A stretch of 19,255 bases of DNA from a virus (IMGVR_UViG_3300037515_000038:1-19255), one strand, 5' to 3'. Counted from the stretch's first letter, positions 1 through 19,255 are shown. Program-made: numbers and translations. Notes: generated from the letters alone by a model not told the origin.

Positions 1-127
1 CTGACCGAGTCCACCAACGCTGTCGAAAAGACCTTCGGTGACGCAGCCGAAGCCATCCTCGACATCGGTAGGAACTCTGCCGAGAGTTTTGGGTTGTCGA
101 AGGCCGAGTTCAACTCCTTTGCCGTCT
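1..127. repeat. Terminal direct repeat, identical to 19129..19255. This is the assembly overlap of a circular or circularly permuted genome with a 19,128-bp unit.
   Basis: Base-by-base comparison: 1..127 (ctgaccgagtccaccaacgc...ctcctttgccgtct) equals 19129..19255 with no mismatch. Confidence 0.95.
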
Positions 128-1584
128 CCATGGCCGGGTTCGCCAAGAACATCGCCGGAGAGGGCGGGAGCATTGTCGAGGTCACCGAGAAACTCATCCA
201 GAGGGCTGCCGACTTCGCCTCGGTCCACAACATCGAGGTAGCCGACGCCCTCGGTATCTTCCAGTCCACCCTGGCCGGTCAGACCGAGCCGATACGCCGA
301 TACGGTAAGGACATCTCCGATGCAGCCATCAAGCTGTTCGCCTTGGAGACGGGGATCATCGACACCAAGCGGGAGATGACCGAAGGCGAGAAGCAGACCG
401 CCCGTTACGGGCTGTTGCTCCGTGAGACCGAAGACTGGGCTGGTGACTTCGCTGACACCGCTGGCGAGCTTGCCAACCAACAGCGGATAGCCAACGCCGA
501 GTTGGAGGACGCCAAAGCCAAGCTGGGTGAGAAGCTGGCCCCCGTCGTGTTGGAGGTCACACAGCTTTTCAGAGACTTCATCAATGTTCTGGGCGAACTC
601 CTCGATCTGCTTCCAGGAGTGGACGTGGGGATCATGGACATCGTCGAGGCCATCGTCCCCTTCGGCCAACAGATTGGTTGGGCCAAGGACCGGCTTGGGG
701 ATTGGAGCGACTCGATTGATGAGAACAACGAGAAGGAAGCCAAAGCCGAAACTCTCACCAAGCAGTGGACCCGTGCCCATGAGGCGATGCGGGGGGAACT
801 GGTCGAAGGTCGTCCCCCACTCCAAAGACACACTGAGGCTGTCGAAGACGCCACTGACGCCACCGAAGAACTCGCTGAGGAGACCCAGACCGCTGCCGAT
901 GCCATTCGGGATGTCCAGTCTGCTGCCCGTGAGGCTGTCGACCCGGTGTTCGCCTACATGCAGGGCACCCAGGAGCTAGCCGATGCTCAGGCTGCCTACA
1001 ACGCTGCTGTGGACGAGTTCGGGGTGAACAGCCCTGAGGCCATCCAGGCAGCCGAGGACATTGCCAGGGCCAACGGGAAAATCCAGGAGGCGGTGACCGA
1101 CATCGGTGAAGTGGGGGTGCCTGCTGCTATGGCAGCCCTCAAGTCGCTGGGTGTCCCCCAGGCGGTCATTGACAAGTTCGCTGCCGACAAGAAGCGCATC
1201 GAAGAAATCTTCCGCAACATGGTCCTCAGGATCGGTGTGTCGGCTCCGACCCTGTATCCGACCTCACCGTCCTCGGGAGGCGTTGGGTGGAAGTCAGAAT
1301 CCAGGAACTACTACGCCCACGGTGGTATCGCCAAGGCCCGTCCTGGTGGTGTCGATGTGGCTGCTGAGGCCGGGTCTGACGAGGCGATGATCCCCATGAA
1401 CTCGGAGGGGATCGGGATTCTGGCTGCCGCCATGAAGGAGGCCATCGGCGGGGGAGGCCAGGCGATCAACCTAATCGTCCCGGCGTCACGGTCCACCGCC
1501 ATCGACGGGTGGGACATCATCGAGATGCTCCAGAAGATCGAACAGTCGTCAGGGCCGCTTCCGATCAGGGTGAGGCAAGGCTGA
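1..1584 (+). CDS. Tail tape measure protein, 3' portion. The 5' portion is 18928..19255. The joined gene is 1785 nt, about 594 aa.
   Basis: Frame 1 is open from base 1 to the TGA at 1582..1584. It is in frame with ATG 18928 through the 127-bp overlap (201 nt, divisible by 3). The product is long, helical and Ala/Glu/Leu-rich with a TP901-type tape-measure core-like segment (SVHNIEVADALGIFQSTLAG...). It lies upstream of the minor tail genes. Confidence 0.85.
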   Translation: MTESTNAVEKTFGDAAEAILDIGRNSAESFGLSKAEFNSFAVSMAGFAKNIAGEGGSIVEVTEKLIQRAADFASVHNIEVADALGIFQSTLAGQTEPIRRYGKDISDAAIKLFALETGIIDTKREMTEGEKQTARYGLLLRETEDWAGDFADTAGELANQQRIANAELEDAKAKLGEKLAPVVLEVTQLFRDFINVLGELLDLLPGVDVGIMDIVEAIVPFGQQIGWAKDRLGDWSDSIDENNEKEAKAETLTKQWTRAHEAMRGELVEGRPPLQRHTEAVEDATDATEELAEETQTAADAIRDVQSAAREAVDPVFAYMQGTQELADAQAAYNAAVDEFGVNSPEAIQAAEDIARANGKIQEAVTDIGEVGVPAAMAALKSLGVPQAVIDKFAADKKRIEEIFRNMVLRIGVSAPTLYPTSPSSGGVGWKSESRNYYAHGGIAKARPGGVDVAAEAGSDEAMIPMNSEGIGILAAAMKEAIGGGGQAINLIVPASRSTAIDGWDIIEMLQKIEQSSGPLPIRVRQG

Positions 1585-6043: not shown

Positions 6044-6208
6044 ATGGAGAGCGCAATGACCAACATCGCACACCAAGACGACTTCAAGGTCGAAGCCTAC
6101 GGCACGTTCACACCACCACCCGTCTCGTGCGGGGGTGCTGAGTGCTACTGGGTGGAGACCGACACCGGGTGGGAGACCATCCATTCAACAGACTGTGAGG
6201 AAAACTGA
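6044..6208 (+). CDS. Small hypothetical protein (54 aa, 3 Cys)
   Basis: ATG 6044 lies 2 nt after the upstream stop. Its stop overlaps the next ATG (ATGA at 6205..6208). GC3 is high. The start choice is uncertain. Confidence 0.4.
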   Translation: MESAMTNIAHQDDFKVEAYGTFTPPPVSCGGAECYWVETDTGWETIHSTDCEEN

Positions 6209-6600
6209 TGTCCCTCGGATACGCCGTAGCCCTACGCAACGCACAACTCGACGAGATCACCGCCAGGGCTGGAGCCTCGGCCCTGCTCAAGATTTTCTCG
6301 GGGACACGGCCCGCCACAGGGGGAGCAGAGACCACCCAGCTATCCGAGCAGGTGTGCAACGCCACCTTTGCTCCAGCAGCTTCCGGTGGGGTGCTCACCC
6401 TCAACGCCATTGCCGACGATGCGGCTGCTGACGCCACCGGGACTGCATCCTGGTTCAGGATCGAGTCAGCCGCTGCCGCCCATGCGATGGACGGTGATGT
6501 TGCCGTGTCAGGTGCAGACCTGAACTTCGACTCGATCAACTTCGTGGCTGGCGGTGTGGTTGCGGTCACATCGTTTGTCATCAACTGCGGCAACGCTTGA
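6208..6600 (+). CDS. Hypothetical Ala/Gly-rich protein (130 aa), probably structural
   Basis: It is translationally coupled on its 5' side, has strong GC3 bias, and lies within the tail-fibre region. I recognise no family. Confidence 0.6.
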   Translation: MSLGYAVALRNAQLDEITARAGASALLKIFSGTRPATGGAETTQLSEQVCNATFAPAASGGVLTLNAIADDAAADATGTASWFRIESAAAAHAMDGDVAVSGADLNFDSINFVAGGVVAVTSFVINCGNA

Positions 6601-6601
6601 T

Positions 6602-6865
6602 GTGTCGCTCTGCACTGGTCGGGGGTCGCTAAGAGGGCAGCACTGCTGTTTCGTCAACGGGCTGGTCTGCCAATACCTGGAGTTGGGGACCGTCCCTGGA
6701 CGCACGTTCGTCTGCGGGTTGAGACGCCAACTCGGCTCGTGGGAGGCCGTCCACGCTGACCCCGGCTACATCGAGAACGTGCAACGGTTTTGGGATGTCC
6801 ACCCCAATATCACATCGTGTGGCGACTGGCAGCCGGAACCTGGCATGTGTTGTAGGGAGACCTGA
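6602..6865 (+). CDS. Small Cys-rich hypothetical protein (87 aa, 8 Cys)
   Basis: GTG 6602 lies 2 nt after the upstream stop. The TGA at 6863..6865 overlaps the next ATG. Third-position G/C is about as strong as in neighbouring genes. The start is uncertain because the ORF is open from 6554. Confidence 0.45.
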   Translation: MSLCTGRGSLRGQHCCFVNGLVCQYLELGTVPGRTFVCGLRRQLGSWEAVHADPGYIENVQRFWDVHPNITSCGDWQPEPGMCCRET

Positions 6866-8430
6866 TGGCAACCCTGAACACCCTCGCCCTCGGCACTTTC
6901 ACCAACGGTAATGACACGGCGATCACCGGGGCTGAGCCGGTCCTCCAAGAGATCGCCTCCGCCGACGACGCCAAGAACGTCCACGACACTGCCAATACAA
7001 CCCACACCGGGATAGCCAAGTTCACCCTTGAGAATGTGAACTCGGACCTGGGCAACATGGACACCCTGTTCATTCGGCTCCGCTACGCCAACTCGAACAC
7101 TCCAGTCAACAACACGTGGGATTCGCTAAGAGCACATGTCTTCAAGTCTGATGGGGTCACCGGGCTAGCAGGCGGGACTTCGCTTTCGGTGGACCGGGTG
7201 GTAGCCACCGATATCACCGCCACCATCCCGACCAACTCAGCAGTTGTCAACTTCATCGCAGTAGACACCGCGGCGACGAAGGACGACTGGGATGGGGCGA
7301 TCGTCGAAGTCAAGTTTTACATCACCAAGAGCATGGCCGGTGACGCCATCGAAGAACGGGTGTTCGCCGCTGAGATCACCGGCACCTACACGCCCGCATC
7401 CAACACTTTCACCGGCTCGGCCAACGTCACCCAAGACGACAACACGTCCGATGCTGCTGGGACGCACACTCCACCCACGTTCACCGGGTCAGCCTCCGAA
7501 ACCCAGGATGACAACACCGCTGACGCTTCGGGGACGTTCACCCCTCCGACGTTCACCGCCACAGCAGCACCCACACAGGAGGACAACACTTCGGCAGCCA
7601 CAGGGACGTTCGTTGTTGGCCCGGTGTCGGGGTCAGCCAACGCCACCCAAGACGACAACACGTCCGAGGCTGCTGGCACTCACACACCACCAACGTTCAC
7701 CGGCAGCGCAGCACCAACCCAAGACGACCAGACCTCGACCGCCACAGGCACCTTCACCGACCCTGTCTACACCGGGGAAGCCTCACCAACCCAAGACGAC
7801 AACACGTCTACAGCCACCGGCACGTTTGTCCCTGGCACTCTCACCGGGTCGGCTGATGCCACTCAGGATGACAACACGGCTACTGCGGTCGGGACTCACA
7901 CACCACCAACATTCACCGGTTCAGTGTCGGTCACCCAGGACGATCAGACTTCGAGCACGACAGCCACGTTCACCGACCCTGTCTACACCGGGTCGGGGGC
8001 TTCGAGCCAGGAGGACAACACATCCACAGCCACCGGCACGTTCACTGCTTCTGAACGGACGGGTTCTGGAGCGCCAACCCAAGACGACAACACTGCTGTT
8101 GGCGCTGGCACGTTTGTCCCGCCTGGCTTCACCGGTTCTTTGGCAGCCGTCCAGGATGACAACCTTGTCGTCGCAGCAGGCACGTTCAGCCTCCCCACCT
8201 TCACCGGGTCAGGCTCTCCCGTCCAAGAGGACAACACGTCGGTTGCTACTGGCACTCACACGACAGACACGATCGCCGGGTCAGCAGCTATCACCCAGGA
8301 CGATCAGGTGCTGGTTGGTGTGGGCACGTTCGCCTGGAACCTCCAGGTTGCCGAGTTCGACGTGCCCTACACGAGACAGTTCATAGGCCGGTTCCCCAAG
8401 TATCCGCTGGTCGACCCGGACAACCGATGA
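6865..8430 (+). CDS. Repeat protein (521 aa): a unique 181-aa N-terminal domain, 13 tandem 24-aa Thr/Ser/Asp-rich repeats, and a short C-terminal tail
   Basis: The ORF is coupled at both ends (ATGA overlaps at 6865 and 8427). The repeat consensus is FTGSa..TQDDNTS.A.GT(F/H)TPPT. Confidence 0.8.
   Translation: MATLNTLALGTFTNGNDTAITGAEPVLQEIASADDAKNVHDTANTTHTGIAKFTLENVNSDLGNMDTLFIRLRYANSNTPVNNTWDSLRAHVFKSDGVTGLAGGTSLSVDRVVATDITATIPTNSAVVNFIAVDTAATKDDWDGAIVEVKFYITKSMAGDAIEERVFAAEITGTYTPASNTFTGSANVTQDDNTSDAAGTHTPPTFTGSASETQDDNTADASGTFTPPTFTATAAPTQEDNTSAATGTFVVGPVSGSANATQDDNTSEAAGTHTPPTFTGSAAPTQDDQTSTATGTFTDPVYTGEASPTQDDNTSTATGTFVPGTLTGSADATQDDNTATAVGTHTPPTFTGSVSVTQDDQTSSTTATFTDPVYTGSGASSQEDNTSTATGTFTASERTGSGAPTQDDNTAVGAGTFVPPGFTGSLAAVQDDNLVVAAGTFSLPTFTGSGSPVQEDNTSVATGTHTTDTIAGSAAITQDDQVLVGVGTFAWNLQVAEFDVPYTRQFIGRFPKYPLVDPDNR
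7408..8343 (+). repeat. 13 x 72-bp in-frame tandem repeat
   Basis: Units start at 7408 + 72n. Unit 13 starts at 8272 (atcgccggg...). Units 1-9 show a 3-unit super-period: GTHTPPT / GTFT.P. / GTFV.... Confidence 0.95.
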
Positions 8431-9008
8431 ACGGTGCCCTGGCTTCATGGTGTCGTGAACCCACCCCGGTGGGGGAGGAGACCTGGACCCCGTGGGGGGA
8501 AGGCTGGTATGCGTGGTCGTCACCCTCACCCGAGGTCGAGTTCTGCGAGTTCGTCGGTGCTCTCGTCCGTCTCCTCCGTCCTCGTCTGGTTGTCGAGACA
8601 GGGGTGGGAGCCGGGTATGTGACCAGACGGATCATCGCTGGCCTCGGGTCGGGGTCTTGGATCGGGTTCGAGTCCGACGACGGATACCGTGCCGAAGGTC
8701 GTCGCCTCCCCTGGCCTGAGGACCTCACCCTCTCATCCGAGGTATCCCCAGCCTCGGCGGATATGGCTGCTGCCGACCTGGTGGTGTTGGATTCCGCACC
8801 CGAATACCGGCTCACCGAGTTCGACCTGTGGCGTGAGCATGGGAAGCCATCCTCGGTCCTGGTGTGCCATGACGTGTCGTCTCGGCATCAACCGTCACCA
8901 CGCAACTCGAAGGTCCACATCCCCTTCTACAACCACATCAGCACGTCAGGGTTGACCGGGGTGTTCCTGACCAACCCTCGTGGCGCATGGATGGGACAGC
9001 ACCCGTGA
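8427..9008 (+). CDS. Class I SAM-dependent methyltransferase-like protein (193 aa; Methyltransf_24 / O-methyltransferase-like)
   Basis: ATGA overlap at the start. There is a motif I-like segment LVVETGVGAGYVT, a later acidic strand DLVVLDS, and then SVLVCHD. This layout is typical of the family. Confidence 0.55.
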   Translation: MNGALASWCREPTPVGEETWTPWGEGWYAWSSPSPEVEFCEFVGALVRLLRPRLVVETGVGAGYVTRRIIAGLGSGSWIGFESDDGYRAEGRRLPWPEDLTLSSEVSPASADMAAADLVVLDSAPEYRLTEFDLWREHGKPSSVLVCHDVSSRHQPSPRNSKVHIPFYNHISTSGLTGVFLTNPRGAWMGQHP

Positions 9009-9715
9009 ACGTGGTCATACCTGTAGGGCCGAACCGGGCAGACACTCTCCGCTGGGTGTTGAGGACCATCCACCAGCATCTGGCTGTGGACCGGGTGGTG
9101 ATCGTCGGGGACATCCCCGGCTGGGTGCGAGGAGTAGAAACCCTCAGCGTCTCCCAACACCGGGATCGGGCCACCAACCACCGTGCCAACATCGAGGCGG
9201 TCCTCGACCACGATCTCGAAGACTTCGTCTGGTGGGACGACGACCATTTCATCCTCGAAGACCGGGACACCATCCCCCTCTACAACGCCGGGTTCGTGTC
9301 CACCTACCTGGCAGCCAAGAAGTCTCAGATGAGGGCGCTGGCAGCACCAGGGGAGTATCAGCGGGCTTTCCAAATGTGCTTCGGCCTGTGCTCAGAGTGG
9401 GGTTATGACGATGTCCTGATGCCTCCACACGTCCCTATGCCCGTAGAGAAGGCGTCCCTGGCCTCCCTGGTCTCCGACACCGACAGATCGGGCCTCGACC
9501 GTAAGGAGATGATGTGGGCGGTGTGGAAGGCCGCATACCTGACCCGTGTGGTCTCCCCTGAGAACTCGACCCACCTTGCCGACCCGAGGCACCGTCACCT
9601 TGACAATCCTGACAGCCCGACAGACGGGTTCTGGGCGACAACAGCCAACCTGTGGACGACCAACACCTGGATCAAAGACCGATACTGGCGTCCATCACCC
9701 TACGAGGCCACCTGA
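9005..9715 (+). CDS. Glycosyltransferase-like protein (236 aa; GT-A fold / Stealth-CR2-like with a DDD motif)
   Basis: GTG 9005 overlaps the upstream stop (GTGA). The segment NVVIPVGPNRADTLRWVLRTIHQHL..DRVVIVGD, followed by DFVWWDDDHFIL, resembles the first strand, helix, second strand and DXD motif of GT-A enzymes. The ORF track start at 8987 is an alternative. Confidence 0.45.
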   Translation: MNVVIPVGPNRADTLRWVLRTIHQHLAVDRVVIVGDIPGWVRGVETLSVSQHRDRATNHRANIEAVLDHDLEDFVWWDDDHFILEDRDTIPLYNAGFVSTYLAAKKSQMRALAAPGEYQRAFQMCFGLCSEWGYDDVLMPPHVPMPVEKASLASLVSDTDRSGLDRKEMMWAVWKAAYLTRVVSPENSTHLADPRHRHLDNPDSPTDGFWATTANLWTTNTWIKDRYWRPSPYEAT

Positions 9716-9975
9716 TGGAAAACTTCCTCTACACTGCTGCTGCGATCGTCGCGTTGGCCGCAGCCCTGAAAGCAACGTTCTACCTGATCGCCAAACTCCG
9801 TCAGACCGGCAAGCTGATGGAGGCGTTGTTCGAGTTGACAAGGGAGGACGACTGGCCCAACGGTGCCGAATCCCTCCAAGCCTCCCATCAGGAACTCTAC
9901 GACAAGGTGTCCAGCATCGAGACTTCCATCAAGGAACTACAGACGGCTGTGGAGCAGGTGCTGACCGGTCGGTAG
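9715..9975 (+). CDS. Small membrane protein (86 aa): one N-terminal TM helix plus a coiled-coil tail. This is a holin-like candidate and the last gene of the long operon.
   Basis: ATG 9715 overlaps the upstream stop (ATGA). FLYTAAAIVALAAALKATFYLIA is a hydrophobic helix. The C-terminus is charged and helical. Confidence 0.6.
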   Translation: MENFLYTAAAIVALAAALKATFYLIAKLRQTGKLMEALFELTREDDWPNGAESLQASHQELYDKVSSIETSIKELQTAVEQVLTGR

Positions 9976-9984
9976 ACATTCATG

Positions 9985-10398
9985 CGAACGTTCAAGCTTC
10001 CTCCCATCCTTCACCCAGCGAACCGCGAGCGTAGCGAGCACGGGAAGAGGGGAGAAACCGGTAGCTGCCCTTGGCAGCGGTAGGTGTCGACCTCTTAACA
10101 TGAAGGTCAGGTGCATATCCTTAGGGGGTTCTCGCTGCGAAATGCCTGGTGACAGACTTTGTACGAATAACGGTCTTATGTGGGCTACCGCCTGCCCTGG
10201 TTAGTGGCTTCTCCTATTGTCCTGAGCCTGCCCGATGCCAGGGGCTTCGTTCGCCCGAACGTTTATGGCGGCGCGCTAAGACGTTGGGAGAGAGGGGAAA
10301 GAGTGCTATTCTTTCGATCGACGATCACCATCATCAGAGAGTAACACCCCTTCGGGGGTGTTCTCTCGTCTCAACCCTTTTTCTTTCAGACGAACGTT
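9985..10398. promoter_or_regulatory. Three dispersed exact copies of CGAACGTT in the large non-coding region (9985..9992, 10256..10263, 10391..10398)
   Basis: Read directly from the sequence. The first copy lies inside the palindrome GAACGTTC. Confidence 0.55.
10343..10387 (+). terminator. Candidate intrinsic terminator or stable RNA hairpin with a C(UUCG)G tetraloop
   Basis: A perfect 8-bp stem joins AACACCCC (10343..10350) and GGGGTGTT (10355..10362) around the loop TTCG. A T-rich run (tttttcttt) begins about 15 nt downstream. Confidence 0.4.
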
Positions 10399-10595
10399 TG
10401 AGGACCCTTGGGTGGTATGCTCGGCCCATATTCGCCCGAGGTCATTCTTGGCCATCCTTCTAAATATGGGCGGATCGGCACTCCTCTTCCTGTCACCGCA
10501 TTTGGGGGAGTGCTACCCAAGTGGGTGCCACTATGGTGCCACTCTTTGAGCGTTATTCAAGAAGTAGCTGAGAGCGGCTTGCCCCTCAAATCATG

Positions 10596-11281: not shown

Positions 11282-11632
11282 ATGGCTAGGAGACACGGAT
11301 TCGCACGGATAGGACGCCGACGCCCTGAATGGGACATCTGGCAGGCGATGGTCCAACGCTGCACCAACCCCAACCACAAGGAGTACCCCCGGTATGGAGG
11401 CCGCGGCATCACCGTATGCGACCGCTGGACCGAACCTGACGGAGACGGTTTCCTCAACTTCCTCTACGACATGGGGTCCAGGCCCGCCAACCCTGAAGGC
11501 TGGAGTCACCGCCTCGCGTACTGGACGCTCGACCGGATCGACAACGACGGCCACTACGAGCCAGGCAACGTCCGCTGGGCTACCTGGTCCCAGCAGGCGT
11601 TCAACCGGCGTCCAAAGACGGTGACAGCATGA
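11282..11632 (+). CDS. HNH-like (His-Me finger variant) DNA-binding/endonuclease-family protein (116 aa)
   Basis: GGAGG lies 6 nt upstream. The segment YPRYGGRGITVCDRW...FLNFLYDMGSRP...LDRIDNDGHYEPGNVRWATWSQQAFNRR matches a family widely annotated as HNH endonuclease in actinophages. Confidence 0.65.
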   Translation: MARRHGFARIGRRRPEWDIWQAMVQRCTNPNHKEYPRYGGRGITVCDRWTEPDGDGFLNFLYDMGSRPANPEGWSHRLAYWTLDRIDNDGHYEPGNVRWATWSQQAFNRRPKTVTA

Positions 11633-12118: not shown

Positions 12119-12378
12119 TCAAGACACAACGAACCAGATTGACCGTCATAGCAGTAGTGTTCGGCGTGTTGGTGATGCTGCTGGCTGCCGCTCCCGATGT
12201 AGCGCCCAGCACACCTCAGACACCCTCCAATCCAGAAGCCTGTGATACGGCCCTCACCAACCATGAACTCACCGTCGACCGGATAGACATAGCCAAAGCT
12301 CAGGGGGACACCACTGAAGCCAGACGCCTGGAGGCCATCAGGAAAGCTGCATACGCTCACATCCAGGCCAACTGTTGA
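12115..12378 (+). CDS. Membrane-anchored or secreted small protein (87 aa)
   Basis: GAGGAG lies upstream. The N-terminus KTQRTRLTVIAVVFGVLVMLLAAAP is a signal-anchor-like helix. Confidence 0.6.
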   Translation: MIKTQRTRLTVIAVVFGVLVMLLAAAPDVAPSTPQTPSNPEACDTALTNHELTVDRIDIAKAQGDTTEARRLEAIRKAAYAHIQANC

Positions 12379-12632
12379 CCCGCCTCATATCCCCCCTATC
12401 CCCCCCCATGAGACGTGAATATGACAAGAGGCTCTACAGACGCAACCGCAAGCTCCTCCTCTCCACACGCCCCAGATGCGTCCTATGCCCCGCACCTGCC
12501 AAGACAGCAGACCACATCATCCCGGTCAGCAAAGGCGGGACATCGGCCCTATCCAACCTCAGACCAGTCTGTGTTCCCTGCAACTCATCACGAGGAAACA
12601 GGACCAGAACACGAGAGTCACACCCATACTGA
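12375..12632 (+). CDS. HNH endonuclease, terminase-associated position (85 aa from TTG 12375, or 74 aa from ATG 12408)
   Basis: The sequence CVLCPAPAKTADHIIPVSKGGTSALSNLRPVCVPCNSSRGNR is a canonical HNH/His-Me motif with Cys pairs. The gene lies directly upstream of the large terminase. Confidence 0.85.
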   Translation: MTRLISPLSPPMRREYDKRLYRRNRKLLLSTRPRCVLCPAPAKTADHIIPVSKGGTSALSNLRPVCVPCNSSRGNRTRTRESHPY

Positions 12633-14226: not shown

Positions 14227-15423
14227 GTGCAGATAGCAGGTCGCGAAATTCGTTGGTCTGAACCCTCCCTCCAACAGAGGTCGCTGGATCAGGTGACCGA
14301 CATCAACGTGGCGTTCACTGAGATGCAGAACAGTCTGCTCGGGTTGACCGAGAACTCGGTGCCGTCCGTGTTCCGTGCCCGCCAGTTCCTCTCCGACACG
14401 GTGGCCTCCCTCCATATGGATGAACTCCAGGGGAAGATCATCGTTGAGGACCCGTCTCCGATCATCACCGACCCTGACCCGACGATCACCTACCACGAGT
14501 TCATGGCCCAGGTGATGCTCTCCCTTCTCGACAACGGCAACGCCTATCTGTGGATCAAGACCCGAGACCAGTTGGGCAACCCCAAGTCGGCCTACGTCTG
14601 TGACCCGCTGGAGGTCAACGTCAATTGGGACAGGCAACGGTTGTATCGCCGCTACTCGTGGCGGGACCAGACCATGACCCCTGACGAGGACTTCCTTCAC
14701 ATCGCCATCAACCGTGGACCGGGCAAGTTGAAGGGGATGGGACCGATCGAAGCTGCCCGCACCACCACCATCCAGACGGCCAAGGCCGAGGAGGAGATGG
14801 CCCGAACACTGGCCGAGGACAACTACACGCCGTCGCTGGTCATCAAGTCCCCGGAGGTCAAGACGGCAGTAGACGCAGAGCGAGTCCTCAATATTTGGAT
14901 GGGTGCCCGAGACTCCAACGGTGGGGGTCGCAAACGCCCTTCGGTAGCCAACACTCTCACCGAGTTCGACCAACTCACCATCAACCCGGTTGACGCCCAA
15001 TGGATCGAATCCCGAGACTTCACCGTCCAGCAGATCGGCAGGCTGTTCGGCATCCACGGGTTCTTCCTCCTGGTCGAGTCGGGGTCGTCTCTCACCTACT
15101 CCACCACCGAGTCGCTGTTCCGTCTCCTGTTGACCGCCACCCTCAGACCCACCTACCTGGAGAGGATCGAACAGGCCATGTCGAGGCTTCTCCCCAGGGG
15201 AAGGATCGCCCGTTTCAACACCGATGAGATTCTCCGTGCCGACATCCTGTCTCGCTACGGGGCGTACCAGATCGGCACCGGGAACCGTGGCTTCCTCGCC
15301 GTCAACGAAGTCCGTGAGGATGAGGGACTTCCTCCGATTCCTGGAGGGGATGAGCTAATCGTTCCCTCTACCACGGAGCCTGCCCCTGTTCCTGCCCCTT
15401 CTCTGAATGGAGCATCAGCATGA
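14227..15423 (+). CDS. Portal protein, HK97 family (398 aa, GTG start)
   Basis: Motifs resemble HK97-type portals: LLDNGNAYLWI, FLHIA, KGMGPIEAAR and WIESRDFTVQQIGRLFGI. Size and position also fit. Confidence 0.9.
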   Translation: MQIAGREIRWSEPSLQQRSLDQVTDINVAFTEMQNSLLGLTENSVPSVFRARQFLSDTVASLHMDELQGKIIVEDPSPIITDPDPTITYHEFMAQVMLSLLDNGNAYLWIKTRDQLGNPKSAYVCDPLEVNVNWDRQRLYRRYSWRDQTMTPDEDFLHIAINRGPGKLKGMGPIEAARTTTIQTAKAEEEMARTLAEDNYTPSLVIKSPEVKTAVDAERVLNIWMGARDSNGGGRKRPSVANTLTEFDQLTINPVDAQWIESRDFTVQQIGRLFGIHGFFLLVESGSSLTYSTTESLFRLLLTATLRPTYLERIEQAMSRLLPRGRIARFNTDEILRADILSRYGAYQIGTGNRGFLAVNEVREDEGLPPIPGGDELIVPSTTEPAPVPAPSLNGASA

Positions 15424-17108
15424 CCGACAGATCTAGAGACGACCAAGGCCGGTTCCTCCCCGACGCCGTCTACCCCGACGAGGAGATGGCTCTGGAGGTC
15501 AGGGACTTCGAGCGCCGGGAGATCGTCGCCCGTTTGCTCCCTTACAACGAGCCGATCCTGGTCCGTGGAAGGCCAGAGTCGTTTGTGAGGGGTGCTGTGG
15601 CGGGCATCGACCCCACGTCGATCAAGCTGCTCTCCTTCCACGACCAGCGCCGTCCCATCGGCAAGAGCGTCGAGTTGGAGGAGCGAGACGACGGAGCCTA
15701 CGTCCGATTCCGCATCTCGAAGACCACCGAAGGCGACGAGATGCTCGAACTCGCCAACGACGGGGTCCTCTCCATCTCCCCAGGCTTCATCCCAGGCGTC
15801 CAGAACCAACAGGGTGTTCATCAGAGGTTGAAGGCCCTACCCGAAGCGTCCTTGGTGACCTTCGCTGCATACAGCGGAGCCAAGGTCCTGTCCGTAAGAG
15901 AAAAGGAGGCCGCAATGGCCGACAACAAGCCCACAACCGAACCTGTCGAGGAGCCAGCCGTGCAGACGGTTGACCTCGGCCCCATTGAGACACGTCTGAA
16001 GGACCTCTCGACCCAGATCGAGACCCTCCAGTCGGTGGTCGATGCCCCAGCCCGCAACCTGCCAGCCGGTGGTCCCACACCGTTCGACTGGTTCATGGCG
16101 CAGATGGAGGAAAGACTCCAGCCTCGCTCCATGCAGTATCGGGAAGCCCTCGATGAGAAGTGGGAGAACTTCCAGACCCGAGCCAAGGAGGGGACACTCC
16201 AGACCCGTGCCCTAGCCGACATCACTGGTGGGCAGACCCAGGCCGGTGACAACGACCCAGCCGACGACCTGTCGGGTCTCGTGGTCGAGGAGTATCTCGC
16301 CTCTCAACTGGTGAGCATCCTTGACCGGAGACGGCCACTGTTCGCCAGCTTCGGCTCGTTCCCGTCACCCCGTTCTGGTTACGCCCGCATCCCGGTCGTC
16401 ACCCAGCACGTCACGGTGGCTGCCCGCACCGCCCAGAAGACGGAGCCGACCAGCCAGAAGATGATCCTGAAGACCGAGCCGTTCGAGGCGAAATGGTTGG
16501 ACGGAGCACTCGACGTGGCTATCGAGGTCACCCAGATGGCCGAGCTTCCCGTCATGGAGATGGTGTGGGAGGACCTGAGAGGCGCATACGCCGCAGCCAC
16601 CGAGCACGATGTCACCAACGGTGCCGTGCCCTGGTTCGAGGCTGGTGCCCTCGGGTTCACCTACACGGGCACAGCCCTCGACACTGCCACCTACGCCGGG
16701 TTCATAGCCGACGTGGAGGAGCAGATCGACACCATCGAAGATGCGGCCGGGGAGCCTCCCAGCGTCCTGGCCGTCACCCGTGCCCAATGGCGGGTCCTGG
16801 TGGCGATGGTCGACGCCAACGACCGGAGACTGTTCTCCACGATCAACCCTCAGAACGCTGACGCCTCGGTGGGTCTCACCGCCCGGTCGTTCAGCCTTCC
16901 CGGTGGGATCGAAGTGTTCAAGGTGAAGGGTCTCACCCAGGCAGCCCTCTACGGGCCGTCTGCCCTCCGTGCCACCGACTACGGCCCGTCACGGGTCGAA
17001 GCGACCAACGTGGCCCTGATGGGTCGGGACATCGGCATCCTCGGACGGACCATGCTGGTCAACCGAATCCCTGCCGGTGTCGTTGTGTTCGGAACCGAAC
17101 CGTCCTGA
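15420..17108 (+). CDS. Fusion of prohead (HK97/S78-type) protease, a scaffold-like linker and the major capsid protein (562 aa)
   Basis: The N-terminal 150 aa or so resemble the HK97 protease (LLSFHDQRRPIGKS..., GVLSISPGF). A coiled-coil linker follows (ETRLKDLSTQIETLQSV). The C-terminal 300 aa or so are HK97-fold capsid-like. No stop separates them. An in-frame internal SD plus ATG is at 15903..15917. Confidence 0.8.
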   Translation: MTDRSRDDQGRFLPDAVYPDEEMALEVRDFERREIVARLLPYNEPILVRGRPESFVRGAVAGIDPTSIKLLSFHDQRRPIGKSVELEERDDGAYVRFRISKTTEGDEMLELANDGVLSISPGFIPGVQNQQGVHQRLKALPEASLVTFAAYSGAKVLSVREKEAAMADNKPTTEPVEEPAVQTVDLGPIETRLKDLSTQIETLQSVVDAPARNLPAGGPTPFDWFMAQMEERLQPRSMQYREALDEKWENFQTRAKEGTLQTRALADITGGQTQAGDNDPADDLSGLVVEEYLASQLVSILDRRRPLFASFGSFPSPRSGYARIPVVTQHVTVAARTAQKTEPTSQKMILKTEPFEAKWLDGALDVAIEVTQMAELPVMEMVWEDLRGAYAAATEHDVTNGAVPWFEAGALGFTYTGTALDTATYAGFIADVEEQIDTIEDAAGEPPSVLAVTRAQWRVLVAMVDANDRRLFSTINPQNADASVGLTARSFSLPGGIEVFKVKGLTQAALYGPSALRATDYGPSRVEATNVALMGRDIGILGRTMLVNRIPAGVVVFGTEPS

Positions 17109-18928: not shown

Positions 18929-19255
18929 TGGCTTCCAACGTTGTCCGTGTCTCGATCCTGGCTGACGCCAAGTCTCTAGAACAACAACTCCGAGGAGCAG
19001 GCAAGGAAGCCCAAGCCTTCGGGGATCGTATGGGGTTGATGGGCAAGGCGGTTGTCGCTGCTGTTGCCATCAAAGCCCTCAGTGCTGTCAAAGACTTCGT
19101 CAGTGGGTCGGTTGACGCCTACAAAGATCTGACCGAGTCCACCAACGCTGTCGAAAAGACCTTCGGTGACGCAGCCGAAGCCATCCTCGACATCGGTAGG
19201 AACTCTGCCGAGAGTTTTGGGTTGTCGAAGGCCGAGTTCAACTCCTTTGCCGTCT
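18928..19255 (+). CDS. Tail tape measure protein, 5' portion. It continues at base 128 of the window via the circular junction.
   Basis: ATG 18928 opens an ORF that runs off the window end. Its last 127 nt duplicate 1..127, in frame with the ORF ending at 1584. Confidence 0.85.
   Translation, partial: MASNVVRVSILADAKSLEQQLRGAGKEAQAFGDRMGLMGKAVVAAVAIKALSAVKDFVSGSVDAYKDLTESTNAVEKTFGDAAEAILDIGRNSAESFGLSKAEFNSFAV
19129..19255. repeat. Second copy of the 127-bp terminal overlap
   Basis: Identical to 1..127. Confidence 0.95.

Follow-up and report, generated by a model that had tools for sequence, protein, structure and literature searches.

The tail-gene operon of a 19-kb phage ends with coupled genes for an O-methyltransferase-like protein and a miniature Stealth relative

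The tail-gene operon of a 19-kb phage ends with an O-methyltransferase-like gene that is coupled to a gene for a miniature relative of the Stealth enzymes, not an ordinary glycosyltransferase. The probable substrate of this enzyme pair is either a protein of the virion or a sugar polymer on the host surface, and the pair is a further variety of phage glycan-modification modules, the target of which is unproven. We read the pair as a late-expressed, cytoplasmic two-enzyme glycan-modification module with a virion protein as the likely acceptor, and give this reading a probability of about 0.5. The window, i.e., the whole stretch of 19,255 nt analysed here, has overlapping ends; the complete circular genome is 19,128 bp, and its tape-measure gene spans the circular junction. 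GC3 of the enzyme genes (0.73-0.77) is that of the remaining genome.

Table 1. Features of the window discussed in the text; positions are counted from its first nucleotide.
Feature	Position	Strand	Basis or remark
Assembly overlap of circular contig	1..127	.	identical to 19129-19255
130-aa phrog_3758 'virion structural protein'	6208-6600	+	PHROG match
103-aa Cys-rich protein	6554-6865	+	ORF
521-aa acidic Thr-rich protein, N-terminal domain (aa 1-~178) followed by 13 repeats	6865..8430	+	translation
Array of 13 x 72-nt (24-aa) repeats, consensus PPTFTGSAxxTQDDNTSxAxGTFT	7399..8337	+	TRF periods 72, 216 nt
ATGA start/stop overlap, repeat-protein gene to methyltransferase gene	8427..8430	+	sequence
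Methyltransferase gene, 193 aa	8427..9008	+	ORF
GTGA start/stop overlap, methyltransferase gene to Stealth-like gene	9005..9008	+	methyltransferase stop at 9006-9008
Stealth-like gene, 236 aa (242 aa from ATG 8987)	9005..9715 (or 8987..9715)	+	ORF
86-aa protein, one N-terminal transmembrane segment, coiled-coil-like tail	9715..9975	+	Kyte-Doolittle maximum 1.98 at aa 8-26

Open reading frames, overlaps, conserved residues and purifying selection all indicate that the two enzyme genes are real. They overlap each other and the flanking genes by 1-22 nt, and the ATGA and GTGA overlaps bear out the coupling of both genes to the upstream repeat-protein gene that the initial annotation had described. 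The Stealth-like gene more probably starts at GTG 9005 than at ATG 8987, because the relatives L001 and L124 show ATG at exactly the former codon and the family alignment begins there; the start at 8987 would give a 22-nt overlap with the methyltransferase gene. The SD-like GGATGGGA is located ~9 nt upstream of GTG 9005. The stop codon of the Stealth-like gene (9713-9715) overlaps the ATG (9715) of the 86-aa membrane-protein gene; homology with L001 breaks off after this gene. The 86-aa protein matches no family in Pfam or PHROG, and is 91% identical in amino acids to its L001 counterpart, with dN/dS of 0.39. In comparison with L001, a 90%-identical relative, dN/dS is 0.36 for the methyltransferase gene and 0.21 for the Stealth-like gene, similar to the structural genes (0.13-0.23). 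Both enzyme genes are under purifying selection.

The 193-aa protein is a class I SAM-dependent, cation-dependent O-methyltransferase-like protein (Methyltransf_24-type) of the small-molecule/sugar O-methyltransferase type. Pfam, homologues, the AF2 model and Foldseek agree that it is methyltransferase-like, as had been proposed from the motifs VVETGVGAGY (aa 55-64) and DLVVLDS (aa 117-123), both of which are present. Its Pfam PF13578 match (E=4.3e-4, 21.6 bits) is under the gathering cutoff of 26.3; homologues P0004 and P0008 carry precomputed PF13578, and one homologue is named 'predicted O-methyltransferase YrrM'. Across 11 homologues, the most distant of which is 41% identical, ETGVGxG, E82, D117, D122, H148 and D149 do not vary. 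The AF2 model (pLDDT 82, pTM 0.83) has the strand/helix order of class I methyltransferases, and the Foldseek top 50 are all class I methyltransferases, the best matches being TrmR, SafC, CCoAOMT/COMT-like O-methyltransferases and Rv0187 (E 5e-10 to 3e-8, TM ~0.66). The protein shares with these and with TylF/Methyltransf_24 enzymes the Rossmann fold, the GxGxG motif I and an acidic residue after beta-2. Invariant acidic residues follow beta-4 (D122, after strand 118-121) and beta-5 (D149; H148-D149 close strand 144-148), positions that, judged from topology, may correspond to the metal ligands of COMT-like enzymes. Its identity to known cation-dependent O-methyltransferases is only 11-19%, and it differs from them in having its own conserved W/E-rich segment at the N-terminus and NPRGxW motif at the C-terminus. 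Since phages are generally known to glycosylate and methylate DNA, and the structural neighbours of the methyltransferase include small-molecule O-methyltransferases and the tRNA-modifying TrmR, the pair might modify phage DNA, a small molecule or the nucleotide-sugar pool. We consider this very unlikely: the methyltransferase has no DNA methyltransferase motifs or fold, the complete genome has no hydroxymethyl-pyrimidine pathway or polymerase, and other phages carry these genes among structural genes and genes for glycan enzymes.

The second protein is a miniature Stealth-superfamily nucleotide-sugar transferase of a divergent DDD/K181 subclade, and is predicted to transfer sugar-1-phosphate. 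Stealth proteins are a hexose-1-phosphoryl transferase family reportedly described by Sperisen in 2005. The initial annotation had called the gene glycosyltransferase-like from VVIPVG, VVIVGD and WWDDDH. These motifs exist and the fold is indeed that of a GT-A-related nucleotide-sugar transferase, but profile, Pfam and fold point to a Stealth sugar-1-phosphate transferase and not to simple glycosyl transfer. The link to Stealth runs through the family profile and the predicted fold because the window protein alone has no Pfam match. The protein belongs to PHROG 7999 (4.8e-23; function unannotated), and the PHROG 7999-type family consists of ~235-aa proteins with 1,292 cluster representatives; the window protein joins this mini-Stealth family at E 1e-12 to 1e-62. 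The CR2 region of Stealth proteins, ~100 aa long (Pfam Stealth_CR2, PF11380), is matched by 49/66 family members (best E 2.9e-9). Against PDB, the family profile matched GNPTAB 7s6n (1e-12) and CpsY 8j2n (3.9e-12), and profile A3 matched Stealth enzymes exclusively (1e-12 to 2e-10; profile A4, 1.1e-8 to 6.7e-6). The family matched no GT Pfam families, and all its sequence-profile matches were Stealth enzymes. The AF2 model has a pLDDT of 89.9. Foldseek, which had been suggested as a check for both proteins, led from the first to class I O-methyltransferases and from the second to CpsY/GNPTAB, which fill PDB ranks 1-12 (E 7e-9 to 3e-7, TMq 0.51-0.60); GT6 (GT-A) enzymes come next (E >= 6e-6, ~1e-5). 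In BFVD, giant-virus 'Stealth protein' entries are the first named matches, behind two unnamed ones. The closest known enzymes are those of the Stealth family, which gave the best profile (1e-12 to 4e-12) and fold matches: GNPTAB (PDB 7s6n, 7sj2, 9bgg; human/zebrafish), M. tuberculosis CpsY (8j2n) and Neisseria capsule polymerases. Unlike these, the mini-Stealth protein is only ~236 aa long, is devoid of spacer regions, EF-hand, Notch and TM segments, and is encoded in phage structural operons.

The catalytic map was taken from studies of GNPTAB and CpsY (PMC9388126, PMC10668966). GNPTAB Asp408 corresponds to D86 of the window protein and His956 to H148, which aligns with aHMPH of GNPTAB in HMMER alignments. 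D85, D86, H148 and E240 are invariant in 66-69 homologues. In the NDD motif, which contains the Mg-binding Asp (GNPTAB Asp407/Asp408, CpsY D324), the DD pair is kept and Asn (Asn84 position) is Asp in the window subclade, giving DDD. Neither GNPTAB nor CpsY can do without its CR3 Arg (Arg986 and Arg419, respectively), which is strictly conserved in Stealth enzymes; an R-to-K change inactivates either enzyme (PMC9388126, PMC10668966). The column corresponding to this Arg, assigned by an HKR / HQRFR alignment to Drosophila GNPT and by spacing rather than coordinates, holds Arg in 51/66 and 64/69 family members (77-93%) and Lys (K181) in the window protein, P0001, P0002, P0013 and P0014. K181 is kept among subclade members at 38-49% identity, and Lys for Arg is a conservative replacement at this position, which binds phosphate. 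CR1, which is IDVVYTF-like in Stealth, has the family consensus D-VVYPVR (D in 59-65 of 66-69) and is degenerate in the window (VNVVIPVG). CLND/CIND of CR4, a nearly universal motif whose Asn1151 binds Mg and the beta-phosphate, is absent; its putative equivalent reads F-L-S-T in the mini-Stealth family, and F-W-A-T in the window protein. The downstream CR4 part, FPxPSxFE, is present as RPSPYE. In summary, the protein shares with Stealth enzymes the CR2 DD pair (Mg ligand), the CR3 His (general base, acceptor hydroxyl) and a C-terminal PSPYE, and perhaps an N-terminal DVVY-like CR1; a Mg/Mn-dependent attack on the UDP-sugar beta-phosphate is expected as in those enzymes.

Because of Lys181, DDD and the missing CLND, the chemistry could differ from that of canonical Stealth, or activity could be low. 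The same three departures would fit an enzyme that has drifted from phosphotransfer to become a Leloir glycosyltransferase or to acquire another altered specificity, which would leave a plain pair of glycosyltransferase and O-methyltransferase, and the GT6 matches and a weak match of the window protein to PHROG 1579 'glycosyltransferase' (E=0.003) point the same way. We regard this as unlikely, since neither H148, the general base, nor the DD pair varies, the change to K181 is conservative and maintained in a subclade of a mostly Arg-containing family, and the sequence-profile matches are to Stealth and not to any GT Pfam family.

The position of the genes, after tail genes and before a small membrane protein, is also that of a usual lysis cassette. 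No recognisable endolysin or lysin was found anywhere in the complete genome, the 86-aa TM protein is directly downstream, and in L133 a GH25 lysin is encoded just upstream of the fibre trio described below, so that the pair might supply the missing lysis functions. This is effectively refuted by the confident methyltransferase and Stealth/GT-A folds. The initial annotation had named placement among peptidoglycan hydrolases as an outcome that would speak against it; searches with Pfam, PHROGs, NCBIfam, PDB sequences and Foldseek gave no hydrolase family or fold for either protein, and neither belongs to that class.

As for the acceptor, the protein encoded directly upstream is rich in Thr (24%; S+T 33%) within its repeats. 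The array has a higher-order period of 216 nt, and its 13 Q[DE]D[NQ] anchors are spaced by exactly 24 aa. The protein had no Pfam, PDB or GenBank-phage match. Such exact phasing suggests a folded fibre or solenoid rather than a mucin-like acceptor, and we treat the repeat protein as a fibre-like virion protein and an unproven candidate acceptor. The trio of 130-aa, 103-aa and repeat-protein genes is kept together in the window and in L132; L133 has a gene for a Gp80-like protein of a different family in place of the first one. The repeat-protein homologues of L132 and L133 are in virion modules without adjoining enzymes, and the L132 copy is equally Thr-rich. Conversely, about 120 other loci have members of the methyltransferase and Stealth families but no such repeat protein, and the three genes are adjacent solely in the window lineage (window, L001, L124). 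The proposal that they form a self-contained cassette of substrate and enzymes is thus not supported as it was put. The Thr/Ser repeats had also been put forward as an obvious candidate acceptor; the repeat protein is still a reasonable candidate because in other phages the gene just ahead of the enzyme genes usually encodes a capsid, 'major tail' or fibre protein.

Mini-Stealth genes directly follow capsid genes and precede head-tail connector genes in L003 and L084-L086, directly follow 'major tail protein' (phrog_792) in 11 loci, precede the head-tail adaptor (phrog_783) in 10 loci, and follow a tail-collar fibre gene in L007/L008. They adjoin GT4, Glyco_trans_1_2, RXYLT1-like and FkbM-methyltransferase genes in 8-20 loci each. 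Of about 40 loci with the methyltransferase family, 15-19 have its gene directly after the one for the major capsid protein (PF05065). Its pairing with mini-Stealth recurs in three lineages independent of each other (the window group, L091, L090), and elsewhere it is paired with GT2-like or TagF-like enzymes. The capsid and 'major tail' proteins encoded beside these enzymes have no obvious Ser/Thr-rich acceptor tails. The placement of both families within virion structural operons, often beside GT4/GT2 and other methyltransferases, fits the virion-glycosylation precedent of Corndog/Che8.

It is possible, at rather low odds, that the pair instead adds a methylated sugar-phosphate to a host envelope glycopolymer (a teichoic-acid-like polymer, arabinogalactan, glucan or a capsule precursor). 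A phage receptor would then be masked, leading to superinfection exclusion in temperate relatives or keeping progeny from adsorbing to debris. All Stealth enzymes characterised so far have glycan substrates (capsule polymerases; CpsY, glucan; GNPTAB, mannose), a methyltransferase homologue is found in a bacterial glycan locus (L002), and the coupled 86-aa membrane protein could anchor the enzymes at the membrane. As no priming glycosyltransferase is encoded in the genome, the enzyme would depend on a hydroxyl or glycan that is already in place. The module lies at the late-operon end, at a mosaic boundary, and in L001 it abuts an HTH + integrase module, with the integrase ~1.3 kb downstream. 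Just upstream of an integrase module is a typical place of host-modifying conversion genes. However, the complete genome of the window phage has no integrase or repressor, so lysogenic conversion is inapplicable to it. No promoter-like site was found in the scanned region, upstream of the enzyme pair included, and thus there is no sign of an independently expressed moron. Neither enzyme has TM segments or a signal peptide; both are soluble and co-transcribed or translationally coupled with late structural genes. Moreover, in many unrelated phages these genes are flanked by those for capsid, connector and tail proteins and do not occupy the position of a moron near att.

For modification of a virion protein, the reading we prefer, the Stealth-like enzyme would transfer sugar-1-phosphate from a UDP-sugar onto a hydroxyl, forming a phosphodiester and releasing UMP, and the methyltransferase would then O-methylate the transferred sugar as a cap. 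The product would be a single methylated sugar-phosphate unit on a pre-existing hydroxyl, because Pfam and PHROG searches of the complete genome (19.1 kb) found no sugar transferase besides the Stealth-like one. By analogy with Corndog and Che8, the acceptor would most likely be a co-produced virion protein; the adjoining Thr-rich fibre-like protein is the leading single candidate, not established. The altered virion surface might provide shielding, stability or adsorption properties. A broader proposal, that in tailed phages of Actinobacteria mini-Stealth enzymes phosphoglycosylate virion proteins at Ser/Thr, here the Thr-rich fibre, and a dedicated O-methyltransferase caps the sugar, is speculative and we think it doubtful. 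To our knowledge, characterised Stealth enzymes all act on sugar hydroxyls of polysaccharides or N-glycans, never on protein side chains, and phosphodiester-linked protein glycosylation is otherwise known only from protists, e.g., Dictyostelium and Leishmania. If true, a previously unrecognised mini-Stealth family would give prokaryotic viruses their first case of phosphodiester-linked protein glycosylation.

Among known systems, Gtr O-antigen glucosylation and TarP-type wall teichoic acid glycosyltransferases are likewise based on phage-borne sugar transferases, and the L001 module is beside the integrase region. Gtr/TarP-type prophage-encoded transferases change a surface polymer. The window module differs from these in having no GtrA/B/C-type membrane proteins, no homology, no integrase in its genome, and coupling to late structural genes. 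Mycobacteriophages are the closer parallel, and the precedent cited in the initial annotation is well founded: Corndog has an O-methyltransferase plus glycosyltransferases inside the structural operon (PMC4351075), and Che8, Corndog and Myrna are reported to glycosylate capsid and tail-tube proteins (Freeman 2023, Cell Host Microbe 31:1216, as cited in PMC12363180 and PMC11256854). The mini-Stealth profile has no detectable relationship to Corndog gp36, gp37 or gp38 (hhalign probability 0.2%). The window methyltransferase aligns with Corndog gp35 over 31 columns around SAM motif I (hhalign probability 33%), and both match Methyltransf_24. Unlike the Corndog/Che8 systems, the window module has two enzymes only, and its linkage is predicted to be a phosphodiester. 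Like Corndog gp35-gp38, Che8 gp107-110 and Myrna, it combines an actinophage-like genome with a ~194-aa Methyltransf_24-type O-methyltransferase beside a nucleotide-sugar transferase, inside or adjoining the structural operon, and as in these mycobacteriophage systems the enzymes are soluble and made late.

The ends of the window (nucleotides 1-127 and 19129-19255) are identical, which indicates that the assembly is a closed circle of 19,128 bp, very small for a siphovirus-like genome. The DNA belongs to a phage: tail genes encode tape-measure, Gly-rich, LamG-type and tail-collar proteins, and the other genes encode an HTH protein, two HNH endonucleases, a large terminase, a portal, a protease-capsid fusion and connector proteins. 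The window shows no recognisable small terminase, and in the complete genome no endolysin, integrase, repressor or replication gene could be recognised. The initial annotation had described two translationally coupled genes with methyltransferase-like and glycosyltransferase-like motifs. These genes are real; the ORFs, their start/stop overlaps and every quoted motif were found, and dN/dS against L001, a 90%-identical relative, is 0.36 (first gene) and 0.21 (second gene), values like those of the structural genes. The GTG start of the second gene is likelier than the ATG because the codon is ATG in L001 and in the homologous contig L124, and because family alignments begin there. Promoter and terminator scans revealed nothing exceeding chance. 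The usual position of a lysis cassette, 3' of the tail genes, is occupied by the two enzyme genes and a gene for an 86-aa transmembrane protein. Nucleotide identity to L001 is 87-93% over the stretch that begins with the tape-measure gene and ends with the 86-aa gene, and L001 diverges exactly after this 85/86-aa gene (window 9955, L001 8476); past this point L001 has an HTH_17 gene and a tyrosine integrase gene, both missing from the window. Window 9975-10595 (~620 nt) has no convincing ORF, and its GC content dips to 0.57; a search for tRNA and Rfam matches across the 9.7-12.8 kb region, which includes it, gave none.

Coordinates of the features discussed in the text (window positions unless a contig is named)
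Feature	Position	Remarks
Tape-measure gene, 594 aa	18928..19128 + 1..1584	spans the circle junction
Conserved trio (gene 1, Cys-rich protein, repeat protein)	6208-6865 + 6865-8430; L132 3468-6818; L133 4279-6017	
Methyltransferase-like gene	8427-9008	ATGA overlap of start with stop of the 521-aa gene
Stealth-like gene	start ATG 8987 or, likelier, GTG 9005	GTGA overlap with stop of the methyltransferase-like gene
86-aa single-TM protein gene		ATG overlapped by stop of the Stealth-like gene
Two separate HNH endonuclease genes	11282-11632, 12375-12632	upstream of the large terminase gene
Protease-capsid fusion, 562 aa, single ORF	15420-17108	Peptidase_S78 aa 53-165; Phage_capsid aa 286-480

Sequence and model comparisons identify the first protein (MT, 193 aa) as a predicted methyltransferase, as had been proposed from its motifs. 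It matches Pfam Methyltransf_24 with E=4e-4, slightly below the gathering score. Among its homologues (n=10, 41-100% identity), some carry a precomputed PF13578 and one is named 'predicted O-methyltransferase YrrM'; ETGVGxG, E82, D117, D122, H148 and D149 are invariant. The AlphaFold model (pLDDT 82) has the strand order of a class I MTase, and Foldseek revealed that its best PDB fold matches are the metal-dependent O-methyltransferases TrmR, SafC, CCoAOMT/COMT-like enzymes and Rv0187 (E 5e-10 to 3e-8, TM ~0.66). No TM segment was found in MT. Neither tblastn with MT nor megablast of the region gave a match against GenBank phages.

The second protein had been called glycosyltransferase-like. 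The transferase fold stands; a classical glycosyltransferase does not, as profile, Pfam and fold comparisons all lead to Stealth enzymes. Searched alone, the protein matches PHROG 7999 (unknown function, 4.8e-23) and, weakly, a glycosyltransferase PHROG; single-sequence searches gave no match in Pfam, NCBIfam or the PDB, and nothing useful came from the latter two. A three-sequence profile, searched exhaustively with HMMER, retrieved 1,292 cluster representatives, 233 of them at E<=1e-10, mostly stand-alone proteins of ~235 aa. Pfam Stealth_CR2 is matched by 49 of 66 family members and GT families by none. In the PDB, every match of the family profile is a Stealth enzyme: the catalytic domain of GNPTAB (7s6n, 1e-12; 9bgg, 2e-12), M. 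tuberculosis CpsY (8j2n, 3.9e-12) and Drosophila GNPT (7dxi, 1.2e-10). The AlphaFold model (pLDDT 89.9, pTM 0.88) agrees, since the top 12 PDB fold matches are all CpsY or GNPTAB, followed by GT-A enzymes of family GT6 that are about three orders of magnitude weaker. When a viral structure library was searched, two unnamed proteins of 231-236 aa ranked first (TM 0.8), ahead of giant-virus entries named 'Stealth protein'. Judged by these profiles and models, the second protein is a putative miniature Stealth enzyme and not a classical glycosyltransferase. Close relatives of its subclade were found in no GTDB genome, and in IMG/VR only in contig L003 (32% identity). Homologues in GenBank come from Mycobacterium cluster-K-like, Microbacterium and Gordonia phages and are without exception annotated 'hypothetical protein'; the literature searched contained no relevant report of a phage-encoded Stealth enzyme.

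In GNPTAB, Asp408 binds Mg, His956 takes the proton from the acceptor hydroxyl for its attack on the UDP-sugar beta-phosphate, Arg986 (CpsY Arg419) holds this phosphate and cannot be replaced by Lys without abolishing activity, and Asn1151 lies in the CR4 motif CLND (PMC9388126, PMC10668966). D85, D86, H148 and the C-terminal E240 are invariant in the mini-Stealth family, PSPYE being the counterpart of FPxPSxFE, and CLND is changed to LST throughout. The Arg column, assigned from the HKR/HQRFR alignment and spacing, holds Arg in 77-93% of the family and Lys in the window protein and its four nearest relatives (P0001, P0002, P0013 and P0014; 38-92% identity). This Lys subclade shares DDD for NDD and Pro146 for Glu/Asp, and its closest members have Ala217 for Ser. 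The substitutions N84D, E146P, R181K and S217A, at otherwise near-invariant sites, co-occur in the subclade, and R181 appears from the alignment to be the counterpart of the Arg that GNPTAB and CpsY cannot exchange for Lys without losing activity. These changes look like a functional variant rather than decay, because they are common to diverged sequences under purifying selection. K181 and the CR4 differences are the grounds for a further reading, ordinary GT chemistry of the second enzyme, which we consider rather unlikely. In the simplest form of the proposed reaction, the product would be one O-methylated sugar-1-phosphate on a pre-existing hydroxyl, a single unit because the complete genome encodes no other sugar transferase. 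The identities of both enzymes are well supported, whereas the target and the exact chemistry are not.

Mini-Stealth genes are widespread in viral contigs of IMG/VR, where the first 600 pattern matches listed include at least 329 relatives. They also occur commonly, under the annotation 'hypothetical', in genomes of Streptomyces and Acidimicrobiales. In four loci (L003, L084-L086) the gene comes after the major capsid gene and is followed by head-tail connector genes; in 11 loci it lies directly 3' of a PHROG-792 'major tail protein', in 10 it lies 5' of a PHROG-783 head-tail adaptor, and in L007 and L008 a tail-collar fibre gene precedes it. Its neighbours include GT4 (20 and 12 loci), FkbM-type methyltransferase (15), RXYLT1-like (13) and Glyco_trans_1_2 (8) genes. 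The MT family, in ~40 loci examined, is usually right behind the major capsid gene, in the order terminase-portal-protease-capsid-MT, and is followed by a protein of ~230 aa that has a DAD motif and gives a weak GT2-like signal. This usual partner, family A5, is weakly identified (Glyco_tranf_2_4, E=0.002; no PDB match) and is probably another unannotated virion-glycan transferase family. Homology between A5 and mini-Stealth was rejected. A5 proteins (L097-L114, L129, L088; e.g. L101 4880-5566) are conserved, ~230 aa long and marked by the motifs WYEEP...DHLIAVDGPY...RIDADE, and their Pfam match is sub-threshold. MT and mini-Stealth are paired in three lineages: the window with L001 and L124; L091, where MT is 62% identical and the Stealth protein only 24%; and L090, where a GT2-methyltransferase fusion lies between them. 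In L092, MT is paired with a TagF/GT-B-like protein. The pairing is recurrent, not obligatory, since none of 80 mini-Stealth loci from IMG/VR carries the MT family. From their placement, both families are therefore read as glycan-pathway enzymes that phages place within virion gene modules. The MT family also occurs in a bacterial locus rich in GT2 and sulfotransferase genes (L002), which suggests that it also methylates bacterial (sulfated?) polysaccharides. In this locus (JGI Ga0679478_0001192), the MT homologue (43% identity) is accompanied by five GT2 genes, one GT47 exostosin-like gene and one Gly_transf_sug gene, along with two sulfotransferase genes. A chromosomal phage-like block of Streptomyces murinus (L083; CP066774, 7294-8705) has the order 1747-aa protein, Cys-rich 234-aa gene, Stealth gene and 268-aa adaptor-like gene, a layout also seen in at least 10 IMG/VR contigs. 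The 234-aa gene belongs to a neighbour family typed phrog_792 'major tail protein' from another locus. The PHROG names may be unreliable, given this odd tail-protein/Stealth/adaptor order.

The initial annotation had grouped the two enzymes with the upstream Thr-rich repeat protein as a cassette of substrate plus enzymes. In the 521-aa repeat protein, an N-terminal domain of ~178 aa precedes 13 repeats, each exactly 24 aa long (consensus PPTFTGSAxxTQDDNTSxAxGTFT), and the C-terminal tail after them is short. Within the repeat region, which has a higher-order period of 216 nt, 24% of the residues are Thr. Phasing this strict suggests that the repeats fold into a solenoid or fibre instead of staying disordered like a mucin. 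A tblastn search against GenBank phages gave no match, and homologues were found in two ~40-kb viral contigs, L132 and L133. In L132, the homologue (N-domain 79% identity, S+T 28%) lies between capsid and gp6-like connector genes, and the genes before it encode homologues of two window proteins, the 130-aa one and the Cys-rich 103-aa one; no MT or Stealth gene occurs within the 8.8 kb examined. The L133 homologue comes after a GH25 lysin, a Gp80 fibre-like protein and the Cys-rich protein. The proposed cassette is thus not conserved; the conserved trio is gene 1, the Cys-rich protein and the repeat protein. Gene 1 encodes ~130-148 aa and is phrog_3758 in the window and L132 and Gp80-like, a different family, in L133. 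The ~91-115-aa Cys-rich protein has a CC..NG..C.YLE...C.LRR...CC motif and no family match, and it may be an assembly factor. The position of the trio varies: past the tail genes in the window, in the capsid-connector interval in L132 and past the GH25 lysin in L133. An S/T-rich neighbour of any kind occurs in only 2-3 independent mini-Stealth loci, and no S/T-rich tails were evident on capsid or 'major tail' proteins beside these enzymes. Several apparent S/T-rich neighbours were rejected as spurious antisense ORFs. The enzyme genes are very often directly 3' of a gene for one of the major structural proteins (capsid, 'major tail' or fibre), which fits an enzyme following its substrate. This is a point for the repeat protein as acceptor, because here the upstream gene encodes it.

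Modification of a virion protein is the most likely reading, and we put the probability of this whole statement at about 0.5. It is favoured by the structural-operon context in many phages, by coupling to late genes with no upstream promoter-like site, by a genome without integrase and by the Corndog/Che8 precedent. A host wall glycopolymer is a possible target that we entertain tentatively: every known Stealth acceptor is a sugar, and the module lies at a mosaic boundary that abuts an HTH-integrase module in L001. Modification of DNA, which had been offered as an alternative, or of a small molecule is unlikely, as the folds and the gene content are against it, and for DNA we reject it. On the same grounds a role of the pair in lysis is unlikely, and a lysin reading was rejected.

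Virion glycosylation in actinophages has been demonstrated only recently, and it influences antibody recognition of therapeutic phages. If mini-Stealth enzymes act on virions, they would add a second, chemically different, negatively charged and acid-labile decoration of phage particles, and a protein-directed role for Stealth enzymes in prokaryotic systems. If the host wall is the target, the pair would be a compact receptor-masking device in a 19-kb phage. Under either target, PHROG 7999 and its GenBank homologues can be re-annotated, within a family of ~1,300 sequence clusters all annotated 'hypothetical'. For mechanistic studies, the family also provides a naturally minimal Stealth catalytic core of ~235 aa, and its natural Arg-to-Lys variant falls at what we take to be a residue mutated in mucolipidosis.

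The phage precedent invoked at the outset is real: the mycobacteriophage Corndog has an O-methyltransferase gene and GT genes in its structural operon, and capsid and tail-tube proteins are glycosylated in Che8, Corndog and Myrna (Freeman 2023, as cited in PMC12363180 and PMC11256854). The Corndog O-methyltransferase gp35 (194 aa) matches TylF and Methyltransf_24, but aligns with the window MT only around motif I. The Corndog GTs are unrelated to mini-Stealth, homology being rejected when tested. In summary, the pair in the window fits best as a variant of the glycan-modification module already known from phages, in which a Stealth-type enzyme replaces the Leloir GTs.
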